DNA from: Gammaproteobacteria bacterium
Lineage (GTDB): Bacteria > Pseudomonadota > Gammaproteobacteria > Ga0077536
Assembly: GCA_965278995.1 (NCBI GenBank)
Contig: OZ257136.1
Coordinates: 1,777,458-1,841,457 of the forward strand
Reading direction: 5' to 3'
DNA: 64,000 nt
Part shown: positions 24,158 through 43,107 of the stretch, in pieces
How the letters are laid out: each line of letters starts with the position of its first letter
Position numbering within the stretch: the first letter of the stretch is position 1
Position numbers and translations under genes: made by a program
The notes under the pieces: generated by a model
What the model was told of the DNA's origin: nothing
Databases searched by the model: none
What the model saw: only the letters and a program-made list of their open reading frames with translations

Positions 24158-24229
24158 TCGGTGCAGTCCGCTGCGCTGGCCGCGCATCGGTCGGGCGTTA
24201 TCAGTTTATGCCTGACGGGTTTTGATATT

Positions 24230-24248
24230 ATTAATGATAATCGTTATC
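24230..24248. promoter_or_regulatory. Fur box
   Basis: ATTAATGATAATCGTTATC matches 16/19 positions of GATAATGATAATCATTATC. It lies in an AT-rich island about 35 nt upstream of ATG 24281. Confidence 0.8.
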
Positions 24249-24280
24249 ATTATTATTCATTACCTAGTTGGAGCATTCCC

Positions 24281-24943: not shown

Positions 24944-25026
24944 CAGCGCGCGCCAGCGGCCAGCGCTCCGAGCCCATCACACGCAATGGGCTTGGTTTGC
25001 GGAAGGCATGCTGTCGCGAAATCCTG

Positions 25027-28244: not shown

Positions 28245-28278
28245 GCCCGCAGCCTCGGTTGTTCTATGCAAGCTCTAT

Positions 28279-28297
28279 AATAATACGAATCGTTCTC
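28279..28297. promoter_or_regulatory. Fur-box-like operator in a divergent promoter region
   Basis: AATAATACGAATCGTTCTC matches 13/19 of the Fur consensus. The flanks (AATCGTTxTCA...TATTATTATT) resemble the 24230 box region. It lies between member B (-) and hutZ (+). Confidence 0.5.
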
Positions 28298-28384
28298 ACT
28301 ACTAGTATTATTATTGAAGGGAATTTACCATACGCGCAACCGCGCTGGCGGACAGAACCATCGATTTTCAGCAGGAGTAATGGC

Positions 28385-28903
28385 ATGAGTGCGCTTCCGG
28401 CAGATCTGGACACGGTAGGTCACGAGGCACGCACGTTTCGCGATCGCTTCCTGACCTTGCAACTGGCCACCTGCTCGAACGACGGTGTACCGACAGCCAG
28501 CTATGCGCCTTATGCGCTCAGCGCGGCGGATACGTTCTACATCTACGTAAGCGAACTTGCTGCGCACACGCCCAATCTGCACGCTGGCCGCCCGCTCAGC
28601 GCGCTGTTCATCGAATCGGAAGCAGACGCCGAACACGTCTTTGCGCGCAGACGGCTGACCTGCCGTTGTGAAGTCGAATCGCTGCCGCGAGGGGATGACC
28701 GCTTCGATGCCGCACTCGACGCGCTGCGTGAACGTTTCGGCCCGTTCATGGATCATTTGCGGACATTCCAGGACTTCCATGCGTTTGCCTTGATTCCGCG
28801 CCACGCGATTTACGTGCGCGGCTTTGCGCAGGCGTATGAACTGCCGGATGCGGATTTCAATGCCATCCGCCATCAGAACGAACAAGGCCATCGCAATGCG
28901 TGA
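28385..28903 (+). CDS. hutZ: Heme utilisation / heme-degrading protein HutZ (PNPOx-like fold)
   Basis: ATG 28385 follows AGGAG. Blocks TLQLATCSNDGVPTASYAPY, FARRRLT, RFGPFMDHLRTFQDFHAF, YVRGFAQAYEL and NEQGHRNA parallel Vibrio HutZ. Confidence 0.85.
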   Translation: MSALPADLDTVGHEARTFRDRFLTLQLATCSNDGVPTASYAPYALSAADTFYIYVSELAAHTPNLHAGRPLSALFIESEADAEHVFARRRLTCRCEVESLPRGDDRFDAALDALRERFGPFMDHLRTFQDFHAFALIPRHAIYVRGFAQAYELPDADFNAIRHQNEQGHRNA

Positions 28904-29756
28904 GCGCGCGTGCTCGATAATGTTCGCCGTCGTGTTGCCGGCTCTGGTTTGCGTTCTGTCGACGCCGGCCATCGCTGCCGAGCGCATCGTCTCCATTGGC
29001 GGTTCTGTCACCGAGATTCTGTTTGCGCTCGGCGCAGGCGATCAGCTCGTTGCGGTGGATGCCACCAGCATTTACCCACCTGCAGCGGATGCGCTTCCCG
29101 ACGTCGGCTATCTACGTGCGCTGGCGCCGGAACCGATACTCGCGCTGAAGCCCGATCTGGTGCTGTGCGAAGCCGACGCCGGTCCACCGGAAACGCTCGC
29201 GCAGCTGCACGCTGCCGGCACCGCCACGGTCATGATCCCGGATGAACCCAGCGCTGCTGGCGTCGCGGCAAAAATCCGCGCTGTCGCTGAAACAATCGGG
29301 CGTAGCGCGGCCGGGGAAGAACTCGTTGCCTCGCTCGAGCGCGATCTGAGTGCAACTGCCGCAAGTATCCCGCGCGTCGACGGCAAGCAACCGCGGGTGC
29401 TGTTCGTGCTTCAGTTCGATGAAGGCTCCGTGATGGCCGCCGGGCGCGGGACATCGGCTGATGCGATCATCACACTGGCTGGCGGAATCAATGCTGCCGC
29501 GGCGTTCAACGGTTATAAAGCGATGAACGGTGAAGCGCTGCTGGCGACTGCCCCGGACTACATTTTGACCATGGAGCGCGCCATCGCCGGGCTGGGCTCA
29601 CACGATGCTGTGCTCGCGCTGCCGGCGGTCAGACTGACACCAGCCGCCAAAGCGGGCCGCCTGGTTGTCATGGACGGCTTGTTGCTGCTTGGCTTTGGTC
29701 CGCGCCTCGGTCTTGCCACGCGACAGCTTGCTGACGCTATTTACGCTACTGACTGA
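28896..29756 (+). CDS. hmuT: Hemin ABC transporter periplasmic binding protein
   Basis: ATG 28896 overlaps the end of hutZ. It has a signal peptide and the motif ERIVSIGGSVTEILFALGAGDQLVAVD. Confidence 0.88.
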   Translation: MRERACSIMFAVVLPALVCVLSTPAIAAERIVSIGGSVTEILFALGAGDQLVAVDATSIYPPAADALPDVGYLRALAPEPILALKPDLVLCEADAGPPETLAQLHAAGTATVMIPDEPSAAGVAAKIRAVAETIGRSAAGEELVASLERDLSATAASIPRVDGKQPRVLFVLQFDEGSVMAAGRGTSADAIITLAGGINAAAAFNGYKAMNGEALLATAPDYILTMERAIAGLGSHDAVLALPAVRLTPAAKAGRLVVMDGLLLLGFGPRLGLATRQLADAIYATD

Positions 29757-29778
29757 AACACGCCCGGTACACAGTGGC

Positions 29779-30834
29779 GTGATCACGCACGAACTGTTCT
29801 CGCCACGCGCGCGTGTCATCTCCGCCTGCCTGACAACCACCGTAGTCGCTGCACTGATCAATCTGGCGTGGGGACCTGTCGCCGTTCCACTGGCCGATGT
29901 GATCGCGATTCTGAGTTCCGGAAGCAGCGCGTCTGGCACCCTTTCAGCGAGTGTAGTGCTCGATCTGCGCGGCCCGCGCGTCCTACTGGGCGCATTGGTC
30001 GGCGCGACTCTGGCGGTCGCCGGCGCCGCATTTCAAGGATTGTTTCGCAATCCGCTCGCCGATCCCAGTCTGCTCGGCATCTCGGCCGGCGCTGCCACCG
30101 GCGCAGTCGCGTTTATCGTCCTCGGGCGCGCGCTTGTGCCCGTAGAATTGGGATCAACCAACTGGTCAATTTATGGACTGCCGATAGCCGCCAGCCTTGG
30201 CGCAGTACTGGCGGCTGCCCTGCTCTATCTGCTCGGGCGGCGAGCGGGTGCGCTGGATGTCGCGACCTTGCTGCTGTCAGGAATTGCCATCAACGCGTTG
30301 TGCTCGGCGCTATCGGGGCTATTGATTTTTACCAGCGATGAGCAGGAGCTCCGTGAGCTCACGTTCTGGTCACTCGGTTCCTTGTCGCGCGCGCATTGGT
30401 CGACTCTACTTCCAGCACTACCGCTGCTGGTGGCCGCCATGAGTGGCTTGTTTGCCTTGGCTGGCGCAGTTAACGCTCTCGCTCTCGGAGAGGCAGCCGC
30501 CGCACATCTCGGTTTTCGAGTCGAACGCCTGAAAGGTGTGCTCGTTCTCGCCACCGCTGTCGCCGTCGGTACAGCGGTGGCACTGACCGGCGTGATTGCG
30601 TTCATTGGTTTGATCGTTCCGCATGCAGTCCGAAGTCTCATCGGAGCCGACAATCGCTATGTATTCGCCGCCTGCGCTGGTGCTGGTGCTACGCTGATGC
30701 TGCTCGCCGATCTCCTTGCGCGCAGCGTTGCCATGCCGGCGGAGATGCCGATAGGCATTTTGACCAGTTTGCTCGGCGGCCCGTTTTTTCTGTGGTTGAT
30801 GCTGTATCGGCGCAGCGTCCTGGCGATGCCATGA
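29779..30834 (+). CDS. hmuU: Hemin ABC transporter permease (FecCD family)
   Basis: The sequence is FecCD-like with multiple TM segments. The start is uncertain; I chose the first in-frame GTG after the hmuT stop. The ORF-track ATG 29665 would overlap hmuT by 92 nt. Confidence 0.82.
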   Translation: MITHELFSPRARVISACLTTTVVAALINLAWGPVAVPLADVIAILSSGSSASGTLSASVVLDLRGPRVLLGALVGATLAVAGAAFQGLFRNPLADPSLLGISAGAATGAVAFIVLGRALVPVELGSTNWSIYGLPIAASLGAVLAAALLYLLGRRAGALDVATLLLSGIAINALCSALSGLLIFTSDEQELRELTFWSLGSLSRAHWSTLLPALPLLVAAMSGLFALAGAVNALALGEAAAAHLGFRVERLKGVLVLATAVAVGTAVALTGVIAFIGLIVPHAVRSLIGADNRYVFAACAGAGATLMLLADLLARSVAMPAEMPIGILTSLLGGPFFLWLMLYRRSVLAMP

Positions 30835-31643
30835 TAACGACCACGGCCGTCACCTATCGCGTCGGTCATCGAGCCTTGGTCGACGACTGCACCGTGGATT
30901 TCGCAAGCGGCGGTGTGACCGTCGTACTCGGACCGAATGGTGCCGGTAAATCGACCTTATTGCGGCTGCTTGCCGGCGACCTGTCGGCAACCGCCGGCGG
31001 TATTGCGCTGGCCGGTCGCCCACTCAGCGAATGGCCGCTGGCTGCGATCGCCAGGTTCCGCGCTGTCGTCACCCAGTTCAACCAGATTGCCTTTCCCTTC
31101 ACCGTCGCCGAAGTTGTCGCACTCGGCCGACTGCCCCATCGTGCTCAAACAACGGCTGCAGCGGACGCCGCTGCGGTAAGCAACGCCCTGCATTGCATGG
31201 GAGTCGCGGAACTGGCCGCACGCAGCTACCCGACACTGTCCGGCGGTGAACAACAACGGGTTGCCATTGCGCGTGCACTGGCGCAGCTGGATGTGCGCAA
31301 TATCGCTGCCGGGCAAACGCGCTATTTCCTGCTCGATGAACCGACGGCCAGCCTCGATCTGGCTCATCAGCACACCCTCATGCGTCAGCTGCAGGAAATC
31401 GCGCGCGCGGGCTGCGCGGTGATCGCGGTTCTGCATGACATCAATCTCGCGCTCACCTACGCCGACAAGGTGGTAGTGATGGACAACGGTCGTATCGTGG
31501 CGGCGGGCATTACGGCCGAAACGTTGACTGTCGAGTGCATCGAGCGCGTATTTCGAGTGGCGACCCGACGCGTTACGACCGGCCCCGGCTGCGAAACCCT
31601 AATTTTCGGTGGCGCTGTCTGCGCTCCGCCGAGACTGTCATGA
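30831..31643 (+). CDS. hmuV: Hemin ABC transporter ATP-binding protein
   Basis: It is ATGA-coupled to hmuU. It has Walker A GPNGAGKST, the signature LSGGEQQR and Walker B YFLLDEP. Confidence 0.9.
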   Translation: MITTTAVTYRVGHRALVDDCTVDFASGGVTVVLGPNGAGKSTLLRLLAGDLSATAGGIALAGRPLSEWPLAAIARFRAVVTQFNQIAFPFTVAEVVALGRLPHRAQTTAAADAAAVSNALHCMGVAELAARSYPTLSGGEQQRVAIARALAQLDVRNIAAGQTRYFLLDEPTASLDLAHQHTLMRQLQEIARAGCAVIAVLHDINLALTYADKVVVMDNGRIVAAGITAETLTVECIERVFRVATRRVTTGPGCETLIFGGAVCAPPRLS

Positions 31644-31713
31644 ACATCGTGCGTGCTAACATCCACCGCACTACTCGGAATAATCAGCCTTTTCTCCATT
31701 GTGGATTGTATCG

Positions 31714-32262
31714 ATGACCATGTCAGGCCCGTCGGTGTTCGACTTCACACCACGAACGACCGTCATCCGGACCGTCGCCGCGAGTTGGGGCGCAGGCGGC
31801 TTCATTGCGATATTGATCCTCGCGCTGCAGAAGCTTACTCCCGTCGCGCTGGATGCCCTGCGCCACGAACTGACGACGACGCACTGGCTGGTGCTGGTCT
31901 CGAACAGCATATTCATGGCGTACAGCGAAGGTTATCGGGGATTCCAGTGCGCTTATTCGCCGCGACTCGCGGCACGCGCACTGTGGCTGTATCGCCATGC
32001 CGACTGGCGGCAATGTCTGGTGGCGCCGCTGTTGTGCATGGGTTTCTTGCAGGCGCCGCGGCGACGCATGATCAGTGCGTGGGTCCTGACCGCGATGATC
32101 ACCGTGCTCGTGATCGTCTTTCGAAGTCTGCCGCAACCGTGGCGCGGGATCCTCGACGCTGGCGTTATCGTCGGGCTGGGCTGGGGCCTGCTGGCGACAT
32201 TGGCAGCGTGCGTGCAGGCGATGCTCAAACCAGGCTCAACGGTCGATCCTGAAGTCTGCTGA
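31714..32262 (+). CDS. Uncharacterised 4-TM membrane protein, paralogue 2
   Basis: I chose ATG 31714; the ORF track starts at a TTG at 31699. It is paralogous to 23627-24157 and follows hmuV after about 70 nt. Confidence 0.7.
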   Translation: MTMSGPSVFDFTPRTTVIRTVAASWGAGGFIAILILALQKLTPVALDALRHELTTTHWLVLVSNSIFMAYSEGYRGFQCAYSPRLAARALWLYRHADWRQCLVAPLLCMGFLQAPRRRMISAWVLTAMITVLVIVFRSLPQPWRGILDAGVIVGLGWGLLATLAACVQAMLKPGSTVDPEVC

Positions 32263-32334
32263 GACCCGCTCAGGCACGCCCAATCGGCAGCCCGCAGACC
32301 TGCCTATTGCGCAAAACACGGCGCGCCCTTACAT

Positions 32335-32530
32335 TCGCTAGTCTACGTACAGGTGCCGTCGACTAGCGTAAGTCACGGTGAAACGAGAAGACGGTGCGCT
32401 GCCACGCAGCAATCCCGTCACTGCCCCCGCAACGGTAAGTGGGTGCGCTGCTGATACTGCCACTGTGCTTCGCACGGGAAGGCCAGCAAGCGCGCGCAAG
32501 CACCCCACGAGTCCGGAGACCGGCCTGTGC
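32335..32530 (+). promoter_or_regulatory. Cobalamin (B12) riboswitch
   Basis: The conserved blocks appear in the correct order: GGTGCC, GAGAAGACGGTGCG, AATCCCGTCACTGCCCCCGCAACGGTAAG, CACTGCCACTG...GGGAAGGCC, and the B12 box GAGTCCGGAGACCGGCC. The element lies about 40 nt upstream of the GGAGGG RBS and ATG 32570. Confidence 0.85.
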
Positions 32531-32569
32531 GCTGTTGTTTCGTCATGTCGCGGAGGGCGACTGTTGAGC

Positions 32570-34759
32570 ATGCGCACGCGCGTCCTCACTCTATTGTCTT
32601 TTTTCGTTCACCGGACCGGTAACGGGCGGCCACGCCGGCCCGTTGTCCTTGCTCTGGTTCCCGTTCTCGCCATCGTTGCTGCTTCGGTTGCGTCACCACA
32701 AATGGCGCTCGGCGCGTCGGCGCTCGAAATGGATGAGTTGATCGTAACCGGCGTTCGTGAGCAGCGCCTGTTGCTGGCGCCTCGCAGCATCGCGGTGATT
32801 ACGGCGGACGATATCGCGCGCAGCGCTTCCAGCAATCTCGTCGACTTGCTGGCGAAGGAAGCGAACGTCAATCTGCGCAGTTTTTTCGGCAACGACAAAT
32901 TCGCCGGTGTCGATATCCGCGGCATGGGCGATACCTTTTCGAGCAACGTCCTTGTGCTGATCGACGGCGTACGCATCAACGCAGTTGATTTGAGCGGTGC
33001 AGATTTTTCCAGCATTCCGCTCGACCAGATTGAGCGCGTCGAGGTCATCCGCGGCGCCAATGCCGTTCGCTACGGTAACGGCGCTGTCGGCGGTGTGATC
33101 AATATCCGCACGCGACGCCCGTTGCCGGGGACTCATGCGCAGTCGCGACTCACTGCCGGCAGCTTTGACAACCACGGCGGCGCGCTGTCGGCCAGCACCG
33201 GAATCCGCGGCCTCGAACTGGACCTGCGCAGCTCACTAAACGACAGCGACGGCTACCGTGATAACGGCCAGTTCTACAAGAAGGACGGCGCTTTCGGTCT
33301 GCGTTTTCGTGGATTGAGCTGGTTGGATGCCTATGTCCGCGCCGAACTGCATCAGGATCGTTACGGTATTGCAGGCCAGATCAGCGGTACCGCATTCAGA
33401 CGTTCATCGAAAGCCCGCCAGGCCACTGCTACACCAGACGATCATGGCGAAACCATGGATCGACGTTACCGTGCCGGGCTAAATGTCGACGGCGGACGTT
33501 TCGGTCGCTACAGCGGTCTTGCCGCTTATCGCGCTCGTACCAACCCGTACGTCATCGGCTTCACATCGTTGCTCAGCATCCGCGAACAGGAAAGCACGAT
33601 TGAATCTGTGACGCGCGACTATCAGGGGACCTACACGCTTCCACTCACGCTGCTCGGGAACAATCACGAACTGGTGTTCGGCTACGAAGATCTGAACGCC
33701 GATTACGAGCGTCGCGAAAACGGCCGCGGTTACCTCGATCGCAGCCGCAGTTTGAATGGGGCTATCCGCGATCGTTCCGGCTTCGTCAGTTCGCGCTGGT
33801 CGCTGCCACATGCGTTCGCGCTCGATCTCGGTTATCGCCGCGATCAATTCGCGGTGCGGCGGCACGAGGAACGCCTGCAGCGTGTGTGCGACACCGTATT
33901 TATCGATACGGTCGTCAACACGACCGTGTTCGTCGAAGTCGCGCCCGGTGTATTCGTCCCGATAGCCGTGCCCGTTACGGTCTCGCTGCCAGTGGAAAGC
34001 AACTGCCGCGGAGAACTCCTGGTTGCCACCGGCCAGCGCGAAACCTGGCGCAATTCAGCCTGGGAAGCCGGCCTGAGCTGGCAACCGACGAACTGGAGCA
34101 ACATTTATGTCAGCCATCACCGGAGTTTTCGCAATCCGAATGTCGATGAGCTGACGCTGGCTACCGGCGACCTGGCGCCACAACGCGGCAAGCACTGGGA
34201 AATCGGCCTTCGCATGCAACCCACCGAGCGCTTCGAAGCGGCATTGTCGTTGTTTCACATGCGCGTGGCCGACGAAATATTCTTCGGTTACGACCCGGTC
34301 ATGCGCCGCGAAGTGAACCGCAATCTCGATCAGGGGACGACCCGTATGGGCACCGAGATCGAATTGAAGTATGACTTCACGGCCGTGCTTTCCGGTTGGA
34401 CCAACCTGAGCTACATCGACGCCCGCATCGTCGGTGACGATACCTTCATTCCGCTCGTTGCACGCGACAAGATTGCCGCTGGTATCGAGTGGGAACCACT
34501 TGCTGGATTAAGTTTTTCGGCCTCGTGTACGCATGTCGGTCGTCGTTTCGACGGTAACGATTTCGATAATCGCAGTTTCGATCACCTCGACGCCTACCAT
34601 GTCGTCGACGCCAAACTACGTTGGCGTGCGCCACATTATTCTGTCGCCGCGAGTGTCAGCAATGTACTCGACGCCATCTATGCGACTGCCGGATACAGCG
34701 GCACGCTCTATCCCATGGCGCCGCGTTCATTCATGGTCGAACTCGCGTTCGACATCTGA
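32570..34759 (+). CDS. TonB-dependent receptor, BtuB-like (assigned from riboswitch context)
   Basis: I used the internal ATG 32570; the ORF-track N-terminus would run across the riboswitch. It has a TonB box DELIVTG, a plug region (IERVEVIRGANAVRYG), FRNPNVDEL and a C-terminal aromatic residue. Confidence 0.85.
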   Translation: MRTRVLTLLSFFVHRTGNGRPRRPVVLALVPVLAIVAASVASPQMALGASALEMDELIVTGVREQRLLLAPRSIAVITADDIARSASSNLVDLLAKEANVNLRSFFGNDKFAGVDIRGMGDTFSSNVLVLIDGVRINAVDLSGADFSSIPLDQIERVEVIRGANAVRYGNGAVGGVINIRTRRPLPGTHAQSRLTAGSFDNHGGALSASTGIRGLELDLRSSLNDSDGYRDNGQFYKKDGAFGLRFRGLSWLDAYVRAELHQDRYGIAGQISGTAFRRSSKARQATATPDDHGETMDRRYRAGLNVDGGRFGRYSGLAAYRARTNPYVIGFTSLLSIREQESTIESVTRDYQGTYTLPLTLLGNNHELVFGYEDLNADYERRENGRGYLDRSRSLNGAIRDRSGFVSSRWSLPHAFALDLGYRRDQFAVRRHEERLQRVCDTVFIDTVVNTTVFVEVAPGVFVPIAVPVTVSLPVESNCRGELLVATGQRETWRNSAWEAGLSWQPTNWSNIYVSHHRSFRNPNVDELTLATGDLAPQRGKHWEIGLRMQPTERFEAALSLFHMRVADEIFFGYDPVMRREVNRNLDQGTTRMGTEIELKYDFTAVLSGWTNLSYIDARIVGDDTFIPLVARDKIAAGIEWEPLAGLSFSASCTHVGRRFDGNDFDNRSFDHLDAYHVVDAKLRWRAPHYSVAASVSNVLDAIYATAGYSGTLYPMAPRSFMVELAFDI

Positions 34760-34786
34760 GCGCTATTCCTCGTACAGGTACCTGTC

Positions 34787-35677
34787 ATGCGATTACTTTT
34801 CTCCCGCAACTTTACTGCTTTTACCAGCATTCTCGCACTCGCAGCGTTGGTCATTACAGCAGCACAAGCCGGTCCTTTCGCGCCTGCTGCCGGCCAACCC
34901 GGCAGCACCGCTGTGTCCAGTAACGATGCCAGCATCACGGCCTGGGCGACCGGCTATTCCGCCTACCAGGTTGGTGCCAACGTCGATACTACCTGGCAAA
35001 CGCCGGGTCTGGCGCTGGGATCGGCCACTGGCGACAGTTTTGGCATTGTCGGTCTCGGCGACGCCGGCCGCATCACGCTCAGTTTTGCCGGTTCCATCTA
35101 CAACGGTCCGGGTTGGGATTTCGCGGTTTTCGAAAACAGCTTCAGCGACACCTTTCTCGAACTTGCTTTCGTCGAAGTCTCCTCCAATGGCACGAGCTTT
35201 TTCCGCTTTCCGAGTTTCTCGTTGACGCCAGCTGCAGTGGGCGCTTTTGGAACGATGGATCCGACCAACATCGACGGCCTTGCCGGCAAATACCGCCAGG
35301 GATTCGGAACCGCTTTCGATCTGGATATTTTTCGTACCACGCCAGGGATCGACATCAATGACATTCGATTTGTACGCATCGTCGATATCGTCGGTAACGG
35401 GTCGAGCGTCGACAACTGGCCGACCAACCTCGGCGGTCCGCATCCGATCTATGACCCTTATCCAACTATTGGCAGCGCCGGCTTCGATCTCGATGCGGTA
35501 GCCGTGCGTTATCTCGATGCCGACCCGCCGCCCGTCGATGTGTCATCGAAGCAGGTGCCGATACCAGCTACGTTCGCGCTATTACTTGCCGGTGCGCTTG
35601 GCATGGCCGGTGCGCGTCGATTGGAAAGGAAATCAATGTCTCCCGATTTCATTCACTACAACAGGAACCACCTATGA
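34787..35677 (+). CDS. Exported uncharacterised protein with VPIP-type C-terminal anchor signal
   Basis: It has an ATG start, a signal peptide and the C-terminus KQVPIPATFALLLAGALGMAGARRLERK. It is ATGA-coupled to the next gene. Confidence 0.75.
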   Translation: MRLLFSRNFTAFTSILALAALVITAAQAGPFAPAAGQPGSTAVSSNDASITAWATGYSAYQVGANVDTTWQTPGLALGSATGDSFGIVGLGDAGRITLSFAGSIYNGPGWDFAVFENSFSDTFLELAFVEVSSNGTSFFRFPSFSLTPAAVGAFGTMDPTNIDGLAGKYRQGFGTAFDLDIFRTTPGIDINDIRFVRIVDIVGNGSSVDNWPTNLGGPHPIYDPYPTIGSAGFDLDAVAVRYLDADPPPVDVSSKQVPIPATFALLLAGALGMAGARRLERKSMSPDFIHYNRNHL

Positions 35678-36531
35678 AAGCGCTCCCCTTGATCACACTC
35701 GCGGCCTGGACCGGACTGGCGGCCGTCCCGGCAGCCCATGCAGCTCTTGTCAGCTTCGAAGACGTCGTCATGCCGAACGAGCAAAGCTATTCCGGTCCTG
35801 GCGGCGGACGCTACTGGTCCGGGCTGGTGCCGCCTGCCAATGGTCAGGTCGACAGTCAGTTCGTTTCGGGCAACGCATCATTTCCGAACACGAACAACGA
35901 GTGCTGCGGTGGCGCGACATTCTGGAGCGGCTTCGCCTATTCGAATACAACGGATACAACGACTGCTGGCTTCGGCAATCAGGTCAGCGCGTTCGCTGGT
36001 GGTGGCGCCGGAGGCAGCGCGAATTATGCAATCGCTTTCGCCGGTGCATTCAACCCGCTGCGTCTGTCTTTCGACAGCCCTACGACGCTGAAACGCGCAA
36101 ATCTGACCAATACAACCTATGCCGCCTTGTCGATGCGCGATGGCGATTCTTTTGCCAAGCGTTTCGGCGGCGTCAGCGGCGATGATCCGGATTATCTGCT
36201 GTTGACGATCACCGGTAAGGACGCCAATGACGACGATACCGGAACAGTGGACTTTTATCTGGCGGATTTTCGCTTCGCCGACAACGCCGACGACTACATA
36301 CTCGACAGCTGGGCAGCAGTCGAACTGAGTACGCTGGGCGCGGTCACCGCTCTGGAGTTCACGATGACGACTACCGATGTCGGGCAGTTCGGGCCGAATA
36401 CTCCGTTCTATTTCGCTATCGACAATATCGAGCCGGTTCCACTGCCGTCCGCCGTCTGGGTATTCGCGCCCGCACTTGGCTGGCTCGCTGCTGCCGGGAA
36501 GCGACGCAAGCACGGCGTTATTGTGCGCTGA
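35674..36531 (+). CDS. DUF4465-like exported protein with VPLP-type C-terminal anchor signal
   Basis: It has a signal peptide. Blocks SFEDV, YWSG, FPNT, FWSGFAYSNTTDTTTAGFGNQ, GGSANYAIAF, NTTYAALSMRDGDSFAKRFGG, YLLLTITG, VDFYLADFR and YFAIDNIE are typical of DUF4465. The C-terminus is EPVPLPSAVWVFAPALGWLAAAGKRRK. Confidence 0.78.
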   Translation: MKALPLITLAAWTGLAAVPAAHAALVSFEDVVMPNEQSYSGPGGGRYWSGLVPPANGQVDSQFVSGNASFPNTNNECCGGATFWSGFAYSNTTDTTTAGFGNQVSAFAGGGAGGSANYAIAFAGAFNPLRLSFDSPTTLKRANLTNTTYAALSMRDGDSFAKRFGGVSGDDPDYLLLTITGKDANDDDTGTVDFYLADFRFADNADDYILDSWAAVELSTLGAVTALEFTMTTTDVGQFGPNTPFYFAIDNIEPVPLPSAVWVFAPALGWLAAAGKRRKHGVIVR

Positions 36532-36542
36532 AGAACGCTGCT

Positions 36543-36577
36543 AAAAATTGCGACTTCGGCATTCGAGCCGAAGTCGC
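36543..36577 (-). terminator. Hairpin terminator between convergent operons
   Basis: A perfect 11-bp inverted repeat GCGACTTCGGC/GCCGAAGTCGC has a 6-nt loop. On the minus strand it is followed by a T-run (AATTTTT). Confidence 0.7.
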
Positions 36578-36583
36578 TCGGTA

Positions 36584-37312
36584 TCATCGAATCGGCGACG
36601 CGCGCCGCCGCCGGTACAGCATCACAACAGCACTCATCGCCATCCATGCCGGCGGCAATGGTATCGGCGAGATCGAACCATGCCCGCTGCCATAAACAGC
36701 GGTCAACGCGCTGATCATGTCCGGTGCGAGCGGGAACAAAGGCCCGTCGTAGGCCGACGGAAGCGTGCCTGGCAAAACGCCGTCATCGCTGTTGACGAAA
36801 TGCCCCATGCCGAGCGCATGACCGAGTTCGTGTTGCGCGACGGCGTAAAACAGCGTCAATGACCACCCGGCACCGAAACGCTCAGCATTGAAGACAATAT
36901 CTCCAGCCAGACCACTGGCTGTATCAAAAGGAAAATAGGCATACGCGTTGGCGCCATCGATGTGCGCGACCTGGCCGATGCGGATGTCGGCCAGGCCGGT
37001 CGGATCATACTCACCGCTCTCCGGCAACGGACCGTTATCGCGCACTTCACGGAAATGTATCGGCAGCACTGCCGCGTAGTCCCACAGCGCTGCCTCGAAC
37101 GCTCCGCGAAGCGCATCGTTGGCAAGCGCTGAGCTGCCGCGTGCCGGTTGCAGGGCACCATCCAACAGGTTGTCGTAACTGTAGGTCAGCGTTATCGGAC
37201 TGCCGATACCACCCGCTAGCGGCCACGCTGCGTACATCGGGTAGTAGCCGGCTGCATACACCACGGCAGGTGTGAAAAGGCTCAGAAGCAGGAATGTCTT
37301 AAGCCTGTGCAT
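36584..37312 (-). CDS. Matrixin-like (metzincin) zinc metalloprotease with C-terminal IPLP anchor signal
   Basis: It has an ATG start and a signal peptide. The zinc motif is HELGHALGMGH (HExxHxxGxxH). The C-terminus is SPIPLPPAWMAMSAVVMLYRRRR. Confidence 0.82.
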   Translation of the reverse strand: MHRLKTFLLLSLFTPAVVYAAGYYPMYAAWPLAGGIGSPITLTYSYDNLLDGALQPARGSSALANDALRGAFEAALWDYAAVLPIHFREVRDNGPLPESGEYDPTGLADIRIGQVAHIDGANAYAYFPFDTASGLAGDIVFNAERFGAGWSLTLFYAVAQHELGHALGMGHFVNSDDGVLPGTLPSAYDGPLFPLAPDMISALTAVYGSGHGSISPIPLPPAWMAMSAVVMLYRRRRASPIR

Positions 37313-38378
37313 CGTGGCGACTCCGTGTTCGACGCGCGAACATCACGCTGCTGATCGCAGTGCCCGCCAGCCACAACGATGGCGGCACGGGGACGGGCGT
37401 CACCTGCCAGCCGATGTCCGCCAGGCCGGCGTAATCGAGGTCGGTTGGCAACTCACGCAGACCCCTTTCAGTGCTCGGATCCATCAGCGTCTCCTGCGAG
37501 ACTCCATCGACCGTCCTGTAGATGCCATTTGCCCAATGCAGCGCCAGCGAGTCGAGTGGAACCGCCGCGCCGTAGGCCGCGACCGACTGCGTGCCTGTAA
37601 ACGCGCCGGCCTCGACCTGGGAAAACCACGAGTCTGCTTCACCGTAGCCAAGAATGTGCGCCAACTCGTGTGTCGCCGTGGTCACAAAATCCGGTCGCCC
37701 TGGGACAAGCGTGTTGCCCAGGTCTGGGCCATCGAGACCGAAGTACCAATCGTTATTGGCGTTGAACCAGATGGCGCCGCCCCACGGACCGAAGTCGCTG
37801 GCCACAGCGCCAGCCGCATTCGCCTGACCGCGATACAGCACACTGTCGACAAAGGACGCCGGTCCAGTGGCAGTGAGCGCCGAACCGACACCAGCGAATC
37901 CCAGCACGCCGGGTGCCGATGATGAACCGCCAACGAAGACGCGAAGCGTGTTGGCCGGAATCGACTCATTTAGCACAGTCACAGGCGGCCCCTGCAGACT
38001 CGGATGCGTGAACGTTACCGACCAATTTGAGCCCGTGCCGGGTTCGATCGCACTCAACTGGTCGGAAAACCCGGCATAAAAACTAGCTGCCTGCTCGAGC
38101 ACGGCACGACGTTCGAGTCGCGGAGTGCCGTTCACCTGATCGGTGAAAAAGCCGCGTGTGTCGTAACGATAATCGAACTCGATGATGAGTGCCCGCGCCT
38201 CCCCCGCCGCCAGCAGGGCCAGCGCCAACACGCTGCCCTGATAGATGGCGGTAAGACGTCGCGATGAAGTTGCGGTGTCCGCCGGGAAACCACTGCGATC
38301 AACGCCCGGAGCAAGAGCGCCGACGGACACCGCGTTGAGGAGCGATCGCAGTGGGGGGAGACGGTGGCGGCCGCTCAT
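37299..38378 (-). CDS. Zincin-like metalloprotease-domain exported protein with C-terminal VPVP anchor signal
   Basis: ATG 38378 is ATGA-coupled to the upstream gene. It has the motif THELAHILGYGE and ETLMDPS. The C-terminus is TPVPVPPSLWLAGTAISSVMFARRTR. Confidence 0.72.
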   Translation of the reverse strand: MSGRHRLPPLRSLLNAVSVGALAPGVDRSGFPADTATSSRRLTAIYQGSVLALALLAAGEARALIIEFDYRYDTRGFFTDQVNGTPRLERRAVLEQAASFYAGFSDQLSAIEPGTGSNWSVTFTHPSLQGPPVTVLNESIPANTLRVFVGGSSSAPGVLGFAGVGSALTATGPASFVDSVLYRGQANAAGAVASDFGPWGGAIWFNANNDWYFGLDGPDLGNTLVPGRPDFVTTATHELAHILGYGEADSWFSQVEAGAFTGTQSVAAYGAAVPLDSLALHWANGIYRTVDGVSQETLMDPSTERGLRELPTDLDYAGLADIGWQVTPVPVPPSLWLAGTAISSVMFARRTRSRHDAQA

Positions 38379-39115
38379 GCGCAAGCAGACCGTTTGCGGC
38401 AGTGCAGAAGACCCACGAGCAACGGCCCGGCAAGCACCAGTGCGCCAGGCAGCGGGACTGCGCTGACGGTCAGATAACTCGCGCCGGGGCTGTTCGAGTT
38501 ATTGAGAAATCCATGCAGAAACTCGTTGCCGGAAATGTCGTCGCTGCCCGTCAAGGCAATCGCGAAAGCGGTGTTGGCACCGCTGATCCAATCGTTGACG
38601 ATGCGCGACACATCGAAACTGACTGCACCGAATCCATCGACACTGGTCTGCGCAGCGGGATCTGCCGCAACGATGTAATCGTTGAAGAAAGTCAGCCAGT
38701 CTACCGGTCCACCGGGATTGGTATCGTCGGTAATGCTCAACAGCGGATTGGCTGTCACCGCATGCGCCGAAACCAGAAAAGGCGTCGTCGAATCGGCATC
38801 GGCGTTAAAGCCGCCCGCGACACTCTGCACAGTGAGCGTTGCACTGACCGGCCCGCTCAGACTCGCGATCGCCGCGCTGTCGAAGGTCAGGTAAATCGTT
38901 TCGGCGCCAGCGCCGCCAAACGGATTGTCGGTCGAAACGCGATGTACTGGCCGATTGTCGCCGGCGTATCCGCGTACACGATTGGTTCCGGTGAAGAACG
39001 ACGAGGTCATGACGTCTTGCTGGACGGCGATGACAGCTGCTGTCGCGCTGCTCGCGGCGCTCGCCAGCAGCAGGAAGCAAAGACCTTTAAGGGCTTTCGA
39101 TACTGCGTTGTTCAT
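38375..39115 (-). CDS. Exported protein (possibly DNRLRE-like beta-sandwich) with VPLP anchor signal
   Basis: ATG 39115 is ATGA-coupled to the upstream gene and is followed by a signal peptide. It contains VSFDVSRIVNDWISGANTAFAIALTG. The C-terminus is SAVPLPGALVLAGPLLVGLLHCRKR. Confidence 0.7.
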   Translation of the reverse strand: MNNAVSKALKGLCFLLLASAASSATAAVIAVQQDVMTSSFFTGTNRVRGYAGDNRPVHRVSTDNPFGGAGAETIYLTFDSAAIASLSGPVSATLTVQSVAGGFNADADSTTPFLVSAHAVTANPLLSITDDTNPGGPVDWLTFFNDYIVAADPAAQTSVDGFGAVSFDVSRIVNDWISGANTAFAIALTGSDDISGNEFLHGFLNNSNSPGASYLTVSAVPLPGALVLAGPLLVGLLHCRKRSACA

Positions 39116-39870
39116 GCAGTCTCCCCCCATCCCGCGCGGCGGCGCGCGATGCCAGCCAGGCCGGTCAGCAGCGCCGAGCCGAACAGCCAGGCAGCGGCCG
39201 GTACCGGGACAGCGGCGGGGCCGATATCCACAGCCGCTTGCGTGAATGACAAATGCGGACCGCCTTGCAGGACGAAGGAATAGCTCGCGGCAGCTGTCGG
39301 CAGCGTCCACGTGAATAACAGGTGTTCGAGCAGAACCGGGCCGAAGACCGAATTGAAGTCAGCCTCCTGGTAGGTGATGGTTTTGGAATCCCACTGCGCG
39401 CCGTTCAAGCTGACCGGCGCAATTGCGCCACCGAGACTGTCGAATTCAAGGGGCGTGCCCCAGGTCTCGGTCTGCAATGCGACGGTCACCGGCCCGTTTG
39501 CCGGCCCCTGGCTGCCATCGACCGTGATCGTAAAAATTTCAACGCCACTGAAGTTGTACAGATTGCCGGATCCTGCGACGAACGTGCCAGCGTTCCAGCC
39601 GAATGTCGCGGAAGGCGTACCCGACTTGCCGACATCGACTGGACGTGGGCTCGGGCCGCCCGTGAATTGATCCCATTCGGCCCAGGTCGTGCCGGCGGCG
39701 CCACGCGTCCAGCCGCCCCAGGTTACGCCGGCGTCGCTAGGCAGATCGAAGCCGAATCCGGCCGCGTAGGGATTGGGGCCGGTAGCAAAATCGGCCTGCG
39801 CAGTGCCGGCGACGAGCGCGAGCGCCAGGGTGGCCGTTGATGCGACCGTTGATCGATAGCTGATTGTCAT
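39112..39870 (-). CDS. Exported protein with VPLPA-CTERM-type sorting signal (family member C)
   Basis: ATG follows GAGGAG and is followed by the signal peptide ...AGTAQA/DF. The C-terminus is AAVPVPAAAWLFGSALLTGLAGIARRR. It is paralogous to members A and B. Confidence 0.8.
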   Translation of the reverse strand: MTISYRSTVASTATLALALVAGTAQADFATGPNPYAAGFGFDLPSDAGVTWGGWTRGAAGTTWAEWDQFTGGPSPRPVDVGKSGTPSATFGWNAGTFVAGSGNLYNFSGVEIFTITVDGSQGPANGPVTVALQTETWGTPLEFDSLGGAIAPVSLNGAQWDSKTITYQEADFNSVFGPVLLEHLLFTWTLPTAAASYSFVLQGGPHLSFTQAAVDIGPAAVPVPAAAWLFGSALLTGLAGIARRRAGWGETA

Positions 39871-39959
39871 CTCGTCATCTCCTCAAAGCTGAATTTTTTT
39901 ATGGACAGTTTCGTCGCGGTTATCTGACGGCATCGCGTACTTATCTGCTGTTAATTAAT

Positions 39960-39978
39960 CTAAATGATAATCCTTATC
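39960..39978. promoter_or_regulatory. Fur box
   Basis: CTAAATGATAATCCTTATC matches 15/19 of the consensus, with the core AATGATAATCxTTATCATT. It is AT-rich and lies about 90 nt upstream of the gene starting at 39870. Confidence 0.75.
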
Positions 39979-40059
39979 ATTAGCAATAAGTGCGTTATGT
40001 GGAATTTCGGCGGGTTGGCTGGCGCTCGCCCAAACTCACAGCGCCATGATTTCCTCTTG

Positions 40060-40120: not shown

Positions 40121-40699
40121 ATGAACCTCACGCCACTGACGCAGAATTTCGTCCTCCACTTCGGTGAAATGGGTAGCCGCTGGGGCATCAATCGAACGGT
40201 CGGACAAATCTACGCGCTGCTCTACGTCGCCGAGCAGCCATTGAATGCCGACGACATTGCCGGCGCGCTGGGTTTCTCACGCTCGAACGTGAGCATGGGT
40301 TTGAAGGAATTGGAGTCCTGGCGCCTGACACGCGTACAGCACCTGCCGAATGATCGGCGCGAATATTTTTCTGCACCCGAAGATGTGTGGACGATTTTCC
40401 GCACACTGGCCGACGAACGCCGCAAACGGGAAATCGACCCAACTTTGTCGCTGCTGCGCACGTCACTGATGAGTGAGGCCACCACGCCGGCCGAGCAGCA
40501 TGCGCAGAGTCGCATGCGCGAAATGCATCAGCTCATCGAACTCGTCACGCTATGGTTCGACGAGATTCGGAGACTCGAACCCGAGACACTCGTGCAATTA
40601 ATGCAAATGGGTTCAAAAGTCACACGCCTGCTCGAATTCAAGGACCGCCTGAAAGGCGTTACCACCCGGAAGTCCGGACCTGCGGCCGCCGACTCATGA
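40121..40699 (+). CDS. GbsR/MarR-family transcriptional regulator
   Basis: It has an ATG start and the winged-HTH region GINRTVGQIYALLYVAEQPLNADDIAGALGFSRSNVSMGLKELESW. Confidence 0.82.
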   Translation: MNLTPLTQNFVLHFGEMGSRWGINRTVGQIYALLYVAEQPLNADDIAGALGFSRSNVSMGLKELESWRLTRVQHLPNDRREYFSAPEDVWTIFRTLADERRKREIDPTLSLLRTSLMSEATTPAEQHAQSRMREMHQLIELVTLWFDEIRRLEPETLVQLMQMGSKVTRLLEFKDRLKGVTTRKSGPAAADS

Positions 40700-40715
40700 G
40701 CGTGAGGTAGTTGCC

Positions 40716-42083
40716 ATGCATGCCCTCGACCCCGTCTTGCTAGCACGTGCGCAATTCGGCGCAAACATCACCTTTCACATACTATTTCCGACCATTTCTA
40801 TCGCCCTGACCTGGATCCTGCTGTATTTCAAGCTGCGCTATAACGCATCGCTCAGGCGTGGTGACCCGCAGGCTTCGGTCTGGCGCGAAGCCTACCGTTA
40901 CTGGGTCAAAGTTTTCGCACTGACATTCGCACTCGGTGTTGTCTCCGGTGTGACCGTGAGTTTTCAATTCGGCACCAACTGGCCCGGCTACATGGAAACG
41001 GTCGGCAATATTGCCGGGCCATTGCTGGCTTACGAAGTGTTGACGGCATTTTTTCTGGAAGCGACGTTTCTCGCCATCATGTTGTTCGGCGCACGTCGCG
41101 TGTCGAATCGCCTGCACACGCTTGCCACACTGCTCGTAGCCATTGGCACGACGCTGTCGGCGTTCTGGATCCTGGCTTTGAATTCGTGGATGCAGACGCC
41201 CGCGGGATTCACCCTCATCGACGGTCGCGCTCACGCGACCGACTGGGTTGCCGTGATCTTCAACCCGTCGTTCCCGTATCGTTTGACGCACATGCTGCTC
41301 GCCTCAGGGCTCACCACGGCTTTCCTGATTGCCGGCATTTCTGCTTACCGGATTCTCCGCGGTGACCGCGCCGCCGAGGTCCAGATGACATTGCGCACCG
41401 GCATCTATCTCGCCGCGCTGCTGATCCCATTGCAGATCGTAGCCGGCGATATGCACGGTCTGAACACCCTCGAATATCAACCGGCGAAAGTCGCGGCGAT
41501 GGAAGGCATCTGGGAAACAGCGCGTGGCGTACCTGTGCTGCTGTTCGCCCTGCCCGACGGCGTTGCGCGCCGTAATGATTACGAACTCGGCATAACTGGC
41601 GGTGCCAGCCTCGTCCTGACGCACGACCGCAATGGTGAGGTACGCGGGTTGAACGAATTCCGCGATGCGCACCCTCCGGTATTCGCGCTGTTCTGGGCGT
41701 TTCGCGTCATGGTCGGCACCGGTCTGTTGATGCTGGCAGTGTCGTGGCTGGCAAGTTGGCACCTCAAACGCACAGGTGAACTTGCACCATGGCTCTGCCG
41801 CGTTCTCGTTGCCATGACGTTTGCTGGTTGGGTCGCCACTGTCGCCGGCTGGTACGTCACCGAGATTGGGCGCCAACCGTATCTGGTCTACGGTGTACTA
41901 CGAACAGCGGACGCTGCCTCCAGCGTGCCTGCCGGCATGATTGCTACGACACTGGCGATGTACCTGATCCTGTACCTCGGTTTGCTGGTTGCATACGTAT
42001 TGGTCTTGTTTCATCTCGCGCGAAAAGCTGACACCGGACTGCTTGCCCATGACAGCATCGTCGCTCCCGCAGGGAGCGCGTGA
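40716..42083 (+). CDS. cydA: Cytochrome bd-type quinol oxidase subunit I (short Q-loop, CIO-like)
   Basis: ATG follows GAGG. Motifs ARAQFGANITFHILFP and GWYVTEIGRQPY fit CydA. At 455 aa it is shorter than long-Q-loop CydA proteins. Confidence 0.9.
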   Translation: MHALDPVLLARAQFGANITFHILFPTISIALTWILLYFKLRYNASLRRGDPQASVWREAYRYWVKVFALTFALGVVSGVTVSFQFGTNWPGYMETVGNIAGPLLAYEVLTAFFLEATFLAIMLFGARRVSNRLHTLATLLVAIGTTLSAFWILALNSWMQTPAGFTLIDGRAHATDWVAVIFNPSFPYRLTHMLLASGLTTAFLIAGISAYRILRGDRAAEVQMTLRTGIYLAALLIPLQIVAGDMHGLNTLEYQPAKVAAMEGIWETARGVPVLLFALPDGVARRNDYELGITGGASLVLTHDRNGEVRGLNEFRDAHPPVFALFWAFRVMVGTGLLMLAVSWLASWHLKRTGELAPWLCRVLVAMTFAGWVATVAGWYVTEIGRQPYLVYGVLRTADAASSVPAGMIATTLAMYLILYLGLLVAYVLVLFHLARKADTGLLAHDSIVAPAGSA

Positions 42084-42087
42084 CGCC

Positions 42088-43107
42088 ATGGAGTATCTCG
42101 CTGACGGCCGCTGGTTACCGCTGGTCTTTCTGGCGCTGATGGGATTGGCCATGCTCGCGTACGTCGTTCTCGACGGTTACGATCTGGGTGTCGGTATCCT
42201 GTTCGCGCAGGCGGACGACGCGCAAAAAGACATCATGATTGCGAGCATCGGCCCGTTCTGGGATGCCAATGAAACCTGGCTCGTGCTGGGTATCGGCATA
42301 TTGCTGGTTGCGTTTCCGCTGGCGCACGGCGTCATCCTGACATCGCTCTATCTGCCTGTTGCATTAATGTTGGCGGGATTGATCGCGCGAGGCGTCGCTT
42401 TCGATTTCCGCGTCAAAGCCGCCGCTGGCTACAAACCGGCATGGGATAGTGCTTTCCATCTTGGTTCAGTCGTCGCCAGTTTCGCGCAGGGATTGATGCT
42501 CGGCCTTTACATAATCGGCTTTCGTCATGGTTGGGGGCCATATCTCTTCGCGCTGTTTACGGGCTGCGCACTGCTGGCCGGCTATACGCTACTCGGCGCG
42601 ACCTGGTTGATCATGAAAACTGAAGCTGAACTGCAGCTCCGTGCCATCGCCTGGGCACGCCGCAGCATGTGGCTGACCGGCGCCGGCATCGCGGCCGTTT
42701 CGGTGGTCACGCCGCTGGTCAGTTCACGCATTTTCGATAAATGGTTTGCGTTCGACAATTTCTTGGTGCTGTTACCGATACCGGCTGCAACCGCGTTGTT
42801 GTTCGCCATCGTCCTGCGCAGCCTGAAGCGAATTCAGCTGCAGTTGATAGTGGGTAACGAGCACGGCGCGTGGATCCCATTTGCCGGTGCCACAGGGATA
42901 TTCATTCTCGCTTTCTGCGGCCTTGCGTACAGCATGTTCCCCTACCTGGTGGTCGATCGCATCGACATCTGGCAAGCCGCGAGCGCGCCCGAATCTCTGA
43001 AAGTCATTTTAGTCGGCGCCGCTATCGTGCTCCCAGCCATCCTGGGTTACACCGCGTTTGCTTATCGTGTTTTCCGCGGCAAAGCGCGCGAACTGCACTA
43101 CGACTGA
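42088..43107 (+). CDS. cydB: Cytochrome bd-type quinol oxidase subunit II
   Basis: I used the internal ATG 42088, which lies 4 nt after the cydA stop. It has YVVLDGYDLGVGIL and FWDANETWLV. Confidence 0.9.
   Translation: MEYLADGRWLPLVFLALMGLAMLAYVVLDGYDLGVGILFAQADDAQKDIMIASIGPFWDANETWLVLGIGILLVAFPLAHGVILTSLYLPVALMLAGLIARGVAFDFRVKAAAGYKPAWDSAFHLGSVVASFAQGLMLGLYIIGFRHGWGPYLFALFTGCALLAGYTLLGATWLIMKTEAELQLRAIAWARRSMWLTGAGIAAVSVVTPLVSSRIFDKWFAFDNFLVLLPIPAATALLFAIVLRSLKRIQLQLIVGNEHGAWIPFAGATGIFILAFCGLAYSMFPYLVVDRIDIWQAASAPESLKVILVGAAIVLPAILGYTAFAYRVFRGKARELHYD

Follow-up and report, generated by a model that had tools for sequence, protein, structure and literature searches.

The Operon and Its Boundaries

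The 64 kb stretch of contig OZ257136.1 analyzed here (64,000 nucleotides from a gammaproteobacterium, assembly GCA_965278995.1), which is referred to as the window, contains four consecutive minus-strand genes, g1 to g4 (Table 1). A prediction made from the sequence alone, the original prediction, had described them as an operon under a Fur box that encodes four surface-tagged exoproteins, two of them zinc metalloproteases and one a hemophore-like protein. It is well supported that the genes form a single Fur-box-controlled operon and that its four products are exported by Sec and bear exosortase-type tags, with metzincin catalytic signatures in two of them. Two paralogs of g1, called A and B, are found elsewhere in the window, at a heme-uptake locus.

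The four open reading frames (ORFs) lie where they had been predicted, at 36584–39870, and the predicted junctions can be read directly in the sequence: the stop codon of g1 and the start codon of g2 share an ATGA (39112–39115), as do those of g2 and g3 (38375–38378), and the start of g4 overlaps the 3′ end of g3 by 14 nt (37299–37312). A GAGGAG Shine–Dalgarno sequence is found 8 nt before the g1 ATG, and the perfect 11 bp stem and T-run that had been thought to close the operon are indeed seen after g4. Because the genes overlap and are followed by one terminator, they are considered a single unit. A simple promoter scan found no sigma-70 consensus promoter for the operon.

The start codon of g3 is uncertain because ~40 residues precede the hydrophobic signal segment of the protein (38190–38378), an N-terminal extension that is rare among its homologs, being absent from most of the 41 that were aligned. 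There is no obvious Shine–Dalgarno sequence before the ATG at 38378 either. This ATG is the simplest choice, and the ATGA coupling of g2 and g3 is hence likewise putative. A recent horizontal insertion of g2–g4 was also considered, and rejected as unsupported by composition: the GC content at third codon positions is 0.67–0.69, like that of the neighboring genes.

Table 1. Features of the operon and of the uptake and respiratory genes around it.
Feature	Position	Strand	Remarks
g1 (“family member C” of the original prediction)	39112–39870	minus	252 aa ORF
g2	38375–39115	minus	246 aa ORF
g3	37299–38378	minus	359 aa ORF
g4	36584–37312	minus	242 aa ORF
Intrinsic terminator	36541–36577	minus	stem 36577–36550; 11 perfect pairs, 6 nt loop, AATTTTT tail
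Fur box before g1	39960–39984	minus	best 19-mer 39966–39984, GCTAATGATAAGGATTATC
Second Fur box	24230–24254		two overlapping 19-mers, 3 mismatches each; directly upstream of paralog A
Paralog A of g1	24281–24943	plus	immediately upstream of heme-type TonB receptor; VPLPA-CTERM tag
TonB-dependent receptor	24997–27414	plus	best family match heme/hemoglobin receptors; start codon uncertain
Paralog B of g1	27402–28271	minus	31% identity, E 1.7e-12; IPLP-type tag
HutZ/HugZ-like heme-degrading protein, then HmuT/U/V heme ABC importer	28382–31643	plus	HmuV above its model cut-off, HutZ below
Cobalamin riboswitch	32334–32542	plus	100 bits; heads B12 operon (32334–36531)
BtuB-like TonB receptor	~32570–34759	plus	B12 operon
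Tagged protein p5	34787–35677	plus	no clear family
Tagged DUF4465 protein	35674–36531	plus	176.9 bits; PDB 9hmu at 1e-26
MarR/GbsR-like regulator, cydA, cydB (cytochrome bd oxidase)	40121–43107	plus	divergent from Fur-box intergenic region

Fur Boxes and Predicted Iron Control

The Fur box lies ~95–115 bp upstream of the g1 ATG and ~140–160 bp upstream of the divergent MarR-like gene. It had originally been placed at 39960–39978. The box is strong, and Fur-like boxes recur upstream of orthologous modules in other genera. Its best 19-mer is the one at 39966–39984, which matches the 19 bp consensus GATAATGATAATCATTATC at 16 of 19 positions (three mismatches). A perfect 8-N3-8 inverted repeat, AATGATAA-N3-TTATCATT, occupies 39963–39981. 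Matches to the consensus with up to three mismatches are found three times in the window, compared to 0.00 expected from 100 shuffles, and the only ones besides that of g1 precede paralog A, the first gene of the heme receptor locus.

Similar sites are seen in other genomes. With up to five mismatches allowed, 45% of 38 homologous loci (see below) have a Fur-like site in the ~330 bp that precede the module, versus 2.8% of control windows, a ~16-fold difference. At a limit of four mismatches, a site directly precedes the module in 12 loci, which come from Methylophilus, Methylobacillus, Methylophaga, Nitrosovibrio and others. In L001 and L004, two of the four nearest relatives, the g1 homolog is preceded by a Fur-like box at ~99 bp, a spacing like that in the window. 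The boxes suggest that the operon is regulated by iron in vivo.

Some further sites were noted. The double Fur box before paralog A falls within the longest ORF call of that gene, yet upstream of its likely ATG. A four-mismatch Fur-like site, GATAGAGATATTCATTGTC, at 27680–27698 is inside the coding region of paralog B and may be due to chance. The best Fur-like site in the divergent intergenic region between paralog B and the HugZ gene has six mismatches (28279–28297). In Nitrosovibrio sp. Nv17 (L007, 6545–8382), two tandem copies of g2 have a Fur-like box between them (7459–7477), followed by g4 and g3.

The Two Metzincin-like Proteins

The g4 protein is made up of a signal peptide, a matrixin-like catalytic domain with the sequence H161-E162-LG-H165-ALGMG-H171 and an IPLP–helix–RRRR tag. 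It scores 30.1 bits against the Pfam Peptidase_M10 model (PF00413), above the cut-off of 24, and finds matrix metalloproteinases (MMPs) among the PDB sequences: MMP-7 at 9e-7, with the catalytic domains of MMP-7, MMP-8 and MMP-12 at ~1e-6. The alignment to MMP-7 extends to the C-terminal YG. H161, E162, H165, G168 and H171 are conserved in at least 95% of 31 sequences, and the HExxHxxGxxH motif is invariant. The HELGHALGMGH sequence is thus present as predicted, in a protein of the matrixin type. Its homologs are named either “matrixin family metalloprotease” or “PEP-CTERM sorting domain-containing protein”, and most of them carry PF00413, but none are characterized.

By its Pfam match, g4 is a member of M10, although one without a Met-turn (see below) or a prodomain. 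It shares with the matrixins and the bacterial MMP-like proteins (MMP-7, karilysin; MEROPS M10) the zinc-binding motif, the Pfam domain and a mature N-terminus like that of activated MMPs. In contrast to them, it has no hemopexin domain and no cysteine-switch prodomain, since the mature protein begins right after the signal peptide (AGYYPMYAAW…) and has no Cys near its N-terminus, and it bears a sorting tag. Four apparent g4–g3 fusions of 560–592 aa (P0127, P0203, P0213 and P0215) were dropped as evidence of fusion; they are most likely read-throughs or merged gene calls because the sorting tag of g4 and the signal peptide of g3 are both still present in their interior.

In g3, a long N-terminal signal region is followed by a ~270 aa catalytic domain that is metzincin-like and by a VPVP–helix–RR tag. 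It belongs to a family of ~310 aa proteins that are 50–63% identical to each other. Among the 41 aligned homologs, H237, E238, H241, G244, H281 and D300 are invariant, as is the HExxHxxG motif, and M299 is nearly so. H281, 40 residues downstream of the motif, is the likely third zinc ligand, as in leishmanolysin. The candidate Met-turn, M299-D300 in the sequence Q-E-T-L-M-D-P-S, follows 18 residues after it.

When the g3 family profile was compared to PDB sequences, it matched only metzincins (fragilysin at 0.007, karilysin at 0.02). An exhaustive search recovered 988 clusters at E ≤ 1e-30 (~1,000 at 50% identity); some distant relatives pass the Pfam M10 cut-off (PF00413) in the segment of the zinc helix, and many superfamily members head large secreted proteins with Ig, cadherin, dockerin or PEP-CTERM domains. 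The structure model of g3 has a mean predicted local distance difference test score (pLDDT) of 80.9, and its best match in the PDB by Foldseek is leishmanolysin (1lml). TACE/ADAM17, ADAM10 and snake-venom metalloproteinases recur lower down among unrelated low scorers, none with E < 1e-3.

g3 is thus metzincin-like, yet there is no curated family into which it fits. The predicted HELAHILGYGE is there, and the assignment is supported by the conserved residues, the metzincin-only profile matches and the distant relatives that pass M10. As in leishmanolysin (GP63, MEROPS M8), the HExxHxLG[FY] sequence of g3 is followed by an insertion of ~40 residues, an invariant His and, in g3 as a candidate, a Met-containing turn. 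The resemblance to M8 is one of ligand layout and fold. However, g3 is much smaller, does not match Pfam Peptidase_M8 at E < 0.1, and has distant relatives that are nearer to M10 by sequence. Against the NCBIfam model NF038122 (“metallo_LGF”, cut-off 80), g3 scores 34.5 bits and g4 21.1 bits, so both are related to that family but are not members of it. The resemblance between g3 and g4 themselves is confined to the surroundings of the active site.

The Putative Capture Proteins and g2

The g1 protein consists of a signal peptide (…AGTAQA/DF), a beta-sandwich domain and a VPVP–helix–RRR tag. It has 105 detected homologs, none of which are characterized, and no relatives in Pfam. The structure model is a beta-sandwich (pLDDT 89.9) that has no match in the PDB at E < 1e-3; the top 50 Foldseek matches are CBM6/35, ephrin-receptor and lectin-type beta-sandwiches and jelly rolls, with E > 8e-3 and template modeling (TM) scores below 0.3. 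The original label “hemophore-like” has no basis in homology of sequence or fold and derives from genomic context alone.

W54, R56, Y105, W188 and D215 are conserved in the g1 family and in the paralogs of the window. Y105 is found in 86 of 87 family sequences, and R56, W54 and W188 in all 87. Heme binding by g1 is presumed from genomic linkage and analogy. Given its membrane-spanning tag, the protein resembles a surface co-receptor more than it does a secreted hemophore. Like HasA/HasR and HphA/hemophilin, it fits a pattern in which a small exported protein and a heme TonB receptor are encoded side by side and controlled by Fur. Unlike them, it ends in a membrane-spanning tag and would need neither type I secretion nor Slam export. 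A kinship between g1 and DUF4465 was rejected: hhalign aligns only the C-terminal tag, and a weak BLAST match reflects the same tag.

The second gene of the operon encodes a protein with a signal peptide, a DNRLRE-like domain and a VPLP–helix–RKR tag. The domain is below threshold, at 23.8 bits against NCBIfam NF033679 (cut-off 34), and the same is true of all ten orthologs scored (19–26 bits). The g2 family has 52 invariant columns, which include H118 and H201. No usable match to g2 was found in the PDB with either the single sequence or a profile. Relatedness of g1 and g2 was likewise rejected, as hhalign pairs nothing but their tags (96.5% probability).

Sorting Tags

The C-termini of all four proteins are made up of a [VI]PxP motif, a hydrophobic helix and an Arg/Lys cluster. 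The original prediction gave each of them a signal peptide and a VP[LV]P–helix–Arg tag, and all four do have both, except that the tag of g4 is of the IPLP form. The PEP-CTERM-like nature of the tags was also recognized correctly. By motif, helix and basic cluster they are of the VPLPA/PEP-CTERM class. Paralog A passes the VPLPA-CTERM model TIGR03370 (30.0 bits, cut-off 25.35), and six betaproteobacterial g2 orthologs pass the PEP-CTERM model TIGR02595 (18.9–26.2 bits, cut-off 16). On TIGR03370, g1 stays below the cut-off with 15.6 bits, as does the tag of p5, and g2–g4 have no listed match. Many homologs of the tagged proteins are named VPLPA-CTERM or PEP-CTERM in their source databases, where all the names are automatic. 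The window has eight tag-bearing ORFs (g1–g4, A, B, p5 and p6), all within the uptake region at 24.2–39.9 kb.

Because the proteins are proposed to leave the cell by Sec export and exosortase-type sorting through their tags, the products of g1–g4 are predicted to be located at the surface. The g1–g4 C-termini are built like those of PEP-CTERM/exosortase cargo, as described by Haft et al. in 2006 (PMC1569441), and its VPLPA-CTERM variant (TIGR03370). The known ties of such cargo are to exopolysaccharide and floc formation, however. The full-text literature searched held nothing that tied it to hemophores, TonB-dependent uptake of heme or B12, iron or Fur regulation, or these proteases, and the earlier claim that no comparable system had been described was upheld within that literature.

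Conservation and Linkage to Heme Uptake

When one genome per species was scanned with the g3 alignment, 38 loci were found, spanning Methylophilus, Methylobacillus, Methyloversatilis, Thiobacillus, Nitrosovibrio/Nitrosospira, Pseudothauera, Methylomonas, Methylophaga and others. g4 adjoins g3 in 30 of them, g2 does so in 19, and a gene of the g1/A/B family is present in 20. The order is g2-g4-g3 in most Betaproteobacteria and g2-g3-g4 in Gammaproteobacteria. Heme-uptake genes are located within 10 kb in 22 of the 38 loci. In seven loci, all four families are contiguous with hmuTUV, hugZ or a receptor; four loci (L012, L021, L028 and L029) have the arrangement hmuTUV/hugZ-g2-g4-g3-g1-TonB receptor on one strand.

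Nine loci were also examined with g1 as the anchor. A TonB receptor adjoins the g1 homolog in all nine, and genes of the HemS/ChuX, HugZ and HmuTUV types are there too in seven. Co-occurrence with TonB-dependent heme receptors, which had been proposed earlier as a check, was thus found from both directions. The existence of a conserved g2-g3-g4 module that is genomically coupled to heme uptake is well supported. The four-gene order of the window, g1-g2-g3-g4, was not seen in any other locus fetched.

The nearest loci are from metagenome-assembled genomes of Gammaproteobacteria. The four closest (L001 and L004–L006) share the heme gene order of the window, with 55–62% protein identity. There, the gene after g1 encodes a ~235 aa protein with no Pfam match that ends in C-x-R-C-H-Y-D (L001, 10920–11627; L005, 2942–3628; L006, 7967–8674). 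It is followed by a DUF2470 gene, and a DUF6607 gene and a gene for an ABM-domain protein are found upstream. The ABM domain family includes the IsdG-type heme oxygenases. None of these four (the CxRCHYD protein, DUF2470, DUF6607 and ABM) is present in the window. In Nitrosospira sp. Nsp5 (L003, 10001–15536) and Nitrosovibrio sp. Nv17 (L047, 7001–12243), the g1 homolog is followed by a TonB receptor and a ~600 aa protein with a faint match to CbiX (chelatase-like). The former locus also has a truncated copy of g3, comprising residues 180–353 only, at 14964–15479.

A Model for Heme Acquisition

The current thinking is that the operon is part of a Fur-repressed, exosortase-sorted module that would degrade hemoproteins and capture heme for a nearby heme receptor. 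The full mechanism, to which we lend moderate confidence, is drawn from linkage and analogy. Iron starvation would lift Fur repression and turn the operon on. The four products would leave through Sec and be passed on to exosortase-type sorting via their VPLPA/PEP-CTERM tags, to reside on or just outside the outer membrane. There, g3 and g4 would act as zinc endopeptidases that digest extracellular hemoproteins, such as the cytochromes, globins and catalases of lysed cells, to heme or heme-peptides. g1, A and B would capture heme at the surface or act as co-receptors alongside the adjacent heme TonB-dependent receptor, with g2 as an accessory binding module. HmuTUV would then import the heme, and the HutZ/HugZ-type enzyme would open the ring. 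Of the earlier interpretation, which had suggested a surface machine of this kind, the operon, the Fur box, the metzincins, the tags and the heme linkage have stood up, and the hemophore-like homology of g1 has not. The proteolytic activity of g3 and g4 and their choice of hemoproteins as substrates are suggested by analogy.

A number of observations weigh against this model. For the capture proteins, neither phmmer nor a comparison of the family profile to the PDB (E ≤ 10) revealed any sequence similarity of g1 to HasA, HmuY, hemophilin/HphA or NEAT, nor is there similarity in fold. There is no conserved His, Met or Cys in the family, which leaves Y105 and R56 as the only obvious ligand candidates. 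For the proteases, the canonical third-ligand position of g3 is variable (E/T/S/K/G), so the family departs from the HExxHxxGxxH/D motif and H281 can only be put forward as a candidate in its place. The Foldseek match of g3 to leishmanolysin is weak (probability 0.90, E 0.014, TM 0.35). The g4 family has no conserved Met-turn methionine: past the third His, both the sequence and the length vary, and the position of the MMP-7 methionine is Val or Leu in aligned g4 proteins, so a canonical Met-turn is considered absent. A scan of the larger window ORFs turned up no exosortase gene. The Fur box has genes pointing away from it on both sides and could act on the MarR-like/cydAB unit as well as on the operon, or on that unit alone. 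Finally, 16 of the 38 g3 loci have no heme gene within 10 kb, including all those of Methyloversatilis and Methylobacillus, where the module is found in unrelated neighborhoods, and the nearest relatives (L001 and L004–L006) have g1 followed by the unrelated ~235 aa gene and lack g2–g4.

Several alternative explanations have to be considered. It is possible, but unlikely, that the products are iron-starvation proteases that act on non-heme carriers (ferritin-like or transferrin-like proteins, protein-bound iron) or on bulk protein, in which case the proximity of heme genes would reflect nothing but shared Fur control. Such a general role would fit the Fur-like boxes that precede modules far from heme genes in Methylobacillus, Nitrosovibrio and Methyloversatilis, and the use of g3-like domains as generic extracellular protease heads in many phyla. 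However, heme-uptake genes lie close by in the majority of the g3 loci, and the seven loci with all four families contiguous with them go far beyond what is expected from shared regulation.

Alternatively, g3 and g4 might be sheddases or maturation enzymes that cut the tagged capture proteins (g1, A, B and perhaps g2) off the surface to yield diffusible hemophores, or that process them in some other way. We regard this as distinctly unlikely, as at least 16 loci have the module without a g1-family gene nearby, the nearest relatives keep g1 and B without the proteases, and nothing like a conserved linker or cleavage motif was noticed ahead of the tags. The points in its favor are that the proteases and capture proteins are co-transcribed and have a common tag, so that they would co-localize, that g3 and g4 are so tightly paired (30 of 38 loci), and that the protease domains are small and single and have no substrate-binding appendages.

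Another view would be that one or both of the metzincin-like proteins are catalytically dead and act in binding or as a scaffold, for example through a His-rich site for metal or heme. The lack in g4 of the Met-turn methionine that defines metzincins, the missing canonical third ligand position in g3, and a g3/g4 pairing that would suit one catalytic and one non-catalytic partner all point in this direction. Nevertheless, this is very unlikely, since the catalytic Glu and both motif His are invariant in g3 and g4, and the third His in g4, which is the pattern expected of active enzymes; moreover, MMPs in which the Met-turn methionine is replaced still have catalytic activity.

The least probable explanation, that the proteins have nothing to do with iron but are ordinary exosortase cargo for remodeling of matrix or flocs, with a Fur box that regulates the divergent MarR-like/cydAB genes, finds some encouragement in the classical ties of PEP-CTERM proteins to exopolysaccharide and flocs, weak matches to floc_PepA and other PEP-CTERM families, the position of the box and the missing promoter consensus, but is countered by the strong linkage to heme uptake, by the recurrence of Fur-like boxes before the module in loci with quite different neighbors, and by L001 and L004, where the box ~99 bp before the g1 homolog has DUF6607 or CorA as the upstream gene rather than MarR/cydAB.

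Relation to Known Systems

The closest functional parallel to the proposed heme-acquisition module is the gingipain/HmuY/HmuR system, which likewise combines a protease, surface heme capture and a TonB receptor. In Porphyromonas gingivalis, surface gingipains that are sorted by a C-terminal signal degrade hemoproteins, and HmuY, encoded beside a TonB-dependent receptor, captures heme, all under the control of iron or heme. However, gingipains are cysteine proteases that use type IX secretion, whereas g3 and g4 are metzincin-like and have VPLPA/PEP-CTERM tags. HmuY is a lipoprotein with His ligands, to which g1 is unrelated in sequence and fold, and the hosts in the present case are free-living Beta- and Gammaproteobacteria.

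In bipartite TonB-dependent receptors, such as TbpB-TbpA, HpuA-HpuB and HmuY-HmuR, the gene for a surface co-receptor is located upstream of that for the receptor. The same succession of capture gene and TonB receptor is seen for paralog A and for the g1 homologs in L003, L012, L021, L024, L028, L029 and L047, with Fur boxes upstream. The likeness is one of gene order, as there is no protein homology, and the anchor would be an exosortase-type tag and not an N-terminal lipid.

A third comparison is provided by the window itself. The DUF4465 family binds B12, and in the BtuH/DUF4465 system of Bacteroides it constitutes a surface B12-capture protein (PMC13398666). In both cases, an accessory capture protein is encoded in the operon of a TonB receptor, which in the window stands behind a cobalamin riboswitch, but the Bacteroides proteins are lipoproteins and that of the window has a VPLPA/PEP-CTERM-type tag. 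The DUF4465 protein of the window is a close match to solved structures of B12-binding family members. The tag is all that g1 shares with it. With a tagged DUF4465 protein as the last product of the riboswitch-controlled B12 operon, it appears that tagged ligand-capture proteins do partner TonB receptors in this organism.

Taken further, these comparisons raise the tentative possibility, held with rather low confidence, of an exosortase-dependent heme-piracy machine shared by environmental Beta- and Gammaproteobacteria, including methylotrophs, nitrifiers and sulfur oxidizers. It would consist of a tagged metzincin pair, a DNRLRE-like protein and a beta-sandwich co-receptor, based on Tyr and Arg, that feeds a heme TonB receptor, and VPLPA/PEP-CTERM tagging would be the counterpart of surface lipoproteins in TonB-dependent capture of heme and B12. 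The theme of an iron-regulated protease combined with heme capture is a known one; what is probably new is the uncharacterized families and a sorting system that had not been tied to TonB-dependent uptake.

If the proposed heme-acquisition function is correct, it would provide a concrete role for four conserved families of exosortase cargo, a class of proteins that is abundant in environmental bacteria but of which almost none have a known function beyond a tie to exopolysaccharide and flocs. It would also show how methylotrophs, ammonia oxidizers and sulfur oxidizers, which have a very high demand for heme, obtain it from hemoproteins in biofilms and sediments, and it suggests that exosortase tags replace lipoprotein anchors on the accessory proteins of TonB receptors. 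Two of the families, the g1 capture family and the g3 metzincin domain, currently have no Pfam models.

Neighboring Genes

The g1–g4 operon converges on the B12 operon, and on its other flank are the MarR/GbsR-like gene and cydAB. The complete heme-uptake locus of the window (24161–31643) has a Fur box, followed by paralog A, the TonB receptor, paralog B on the opposite strand, the HutZ/HugZ-like gene and hmuT, hmuU and hmuV. HmuV passes the equivalog model for “heme ABC transporter ATP-binding protein” (ABC, ATP-binding cassette) with 291.7 bits against a cut-off of 261, and HutZ (142.9) is below its cut-off. The receptor scores 238.9 bits against TIGR01785, which is likewise below the cut-off (316.85), and shares 55% identity with its counterparts at the L001 and L004 heme loci. 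Two overlapping plus-strand ORFs with no family match (31653–32262) occupy the space between hmuV and the riboswitch; relatives have a DUF2470 gene in that place. The 3′ ends of the heme receptor (plus) and paralog B (minus) converge with a 13 nt overlap at 27402–27414.

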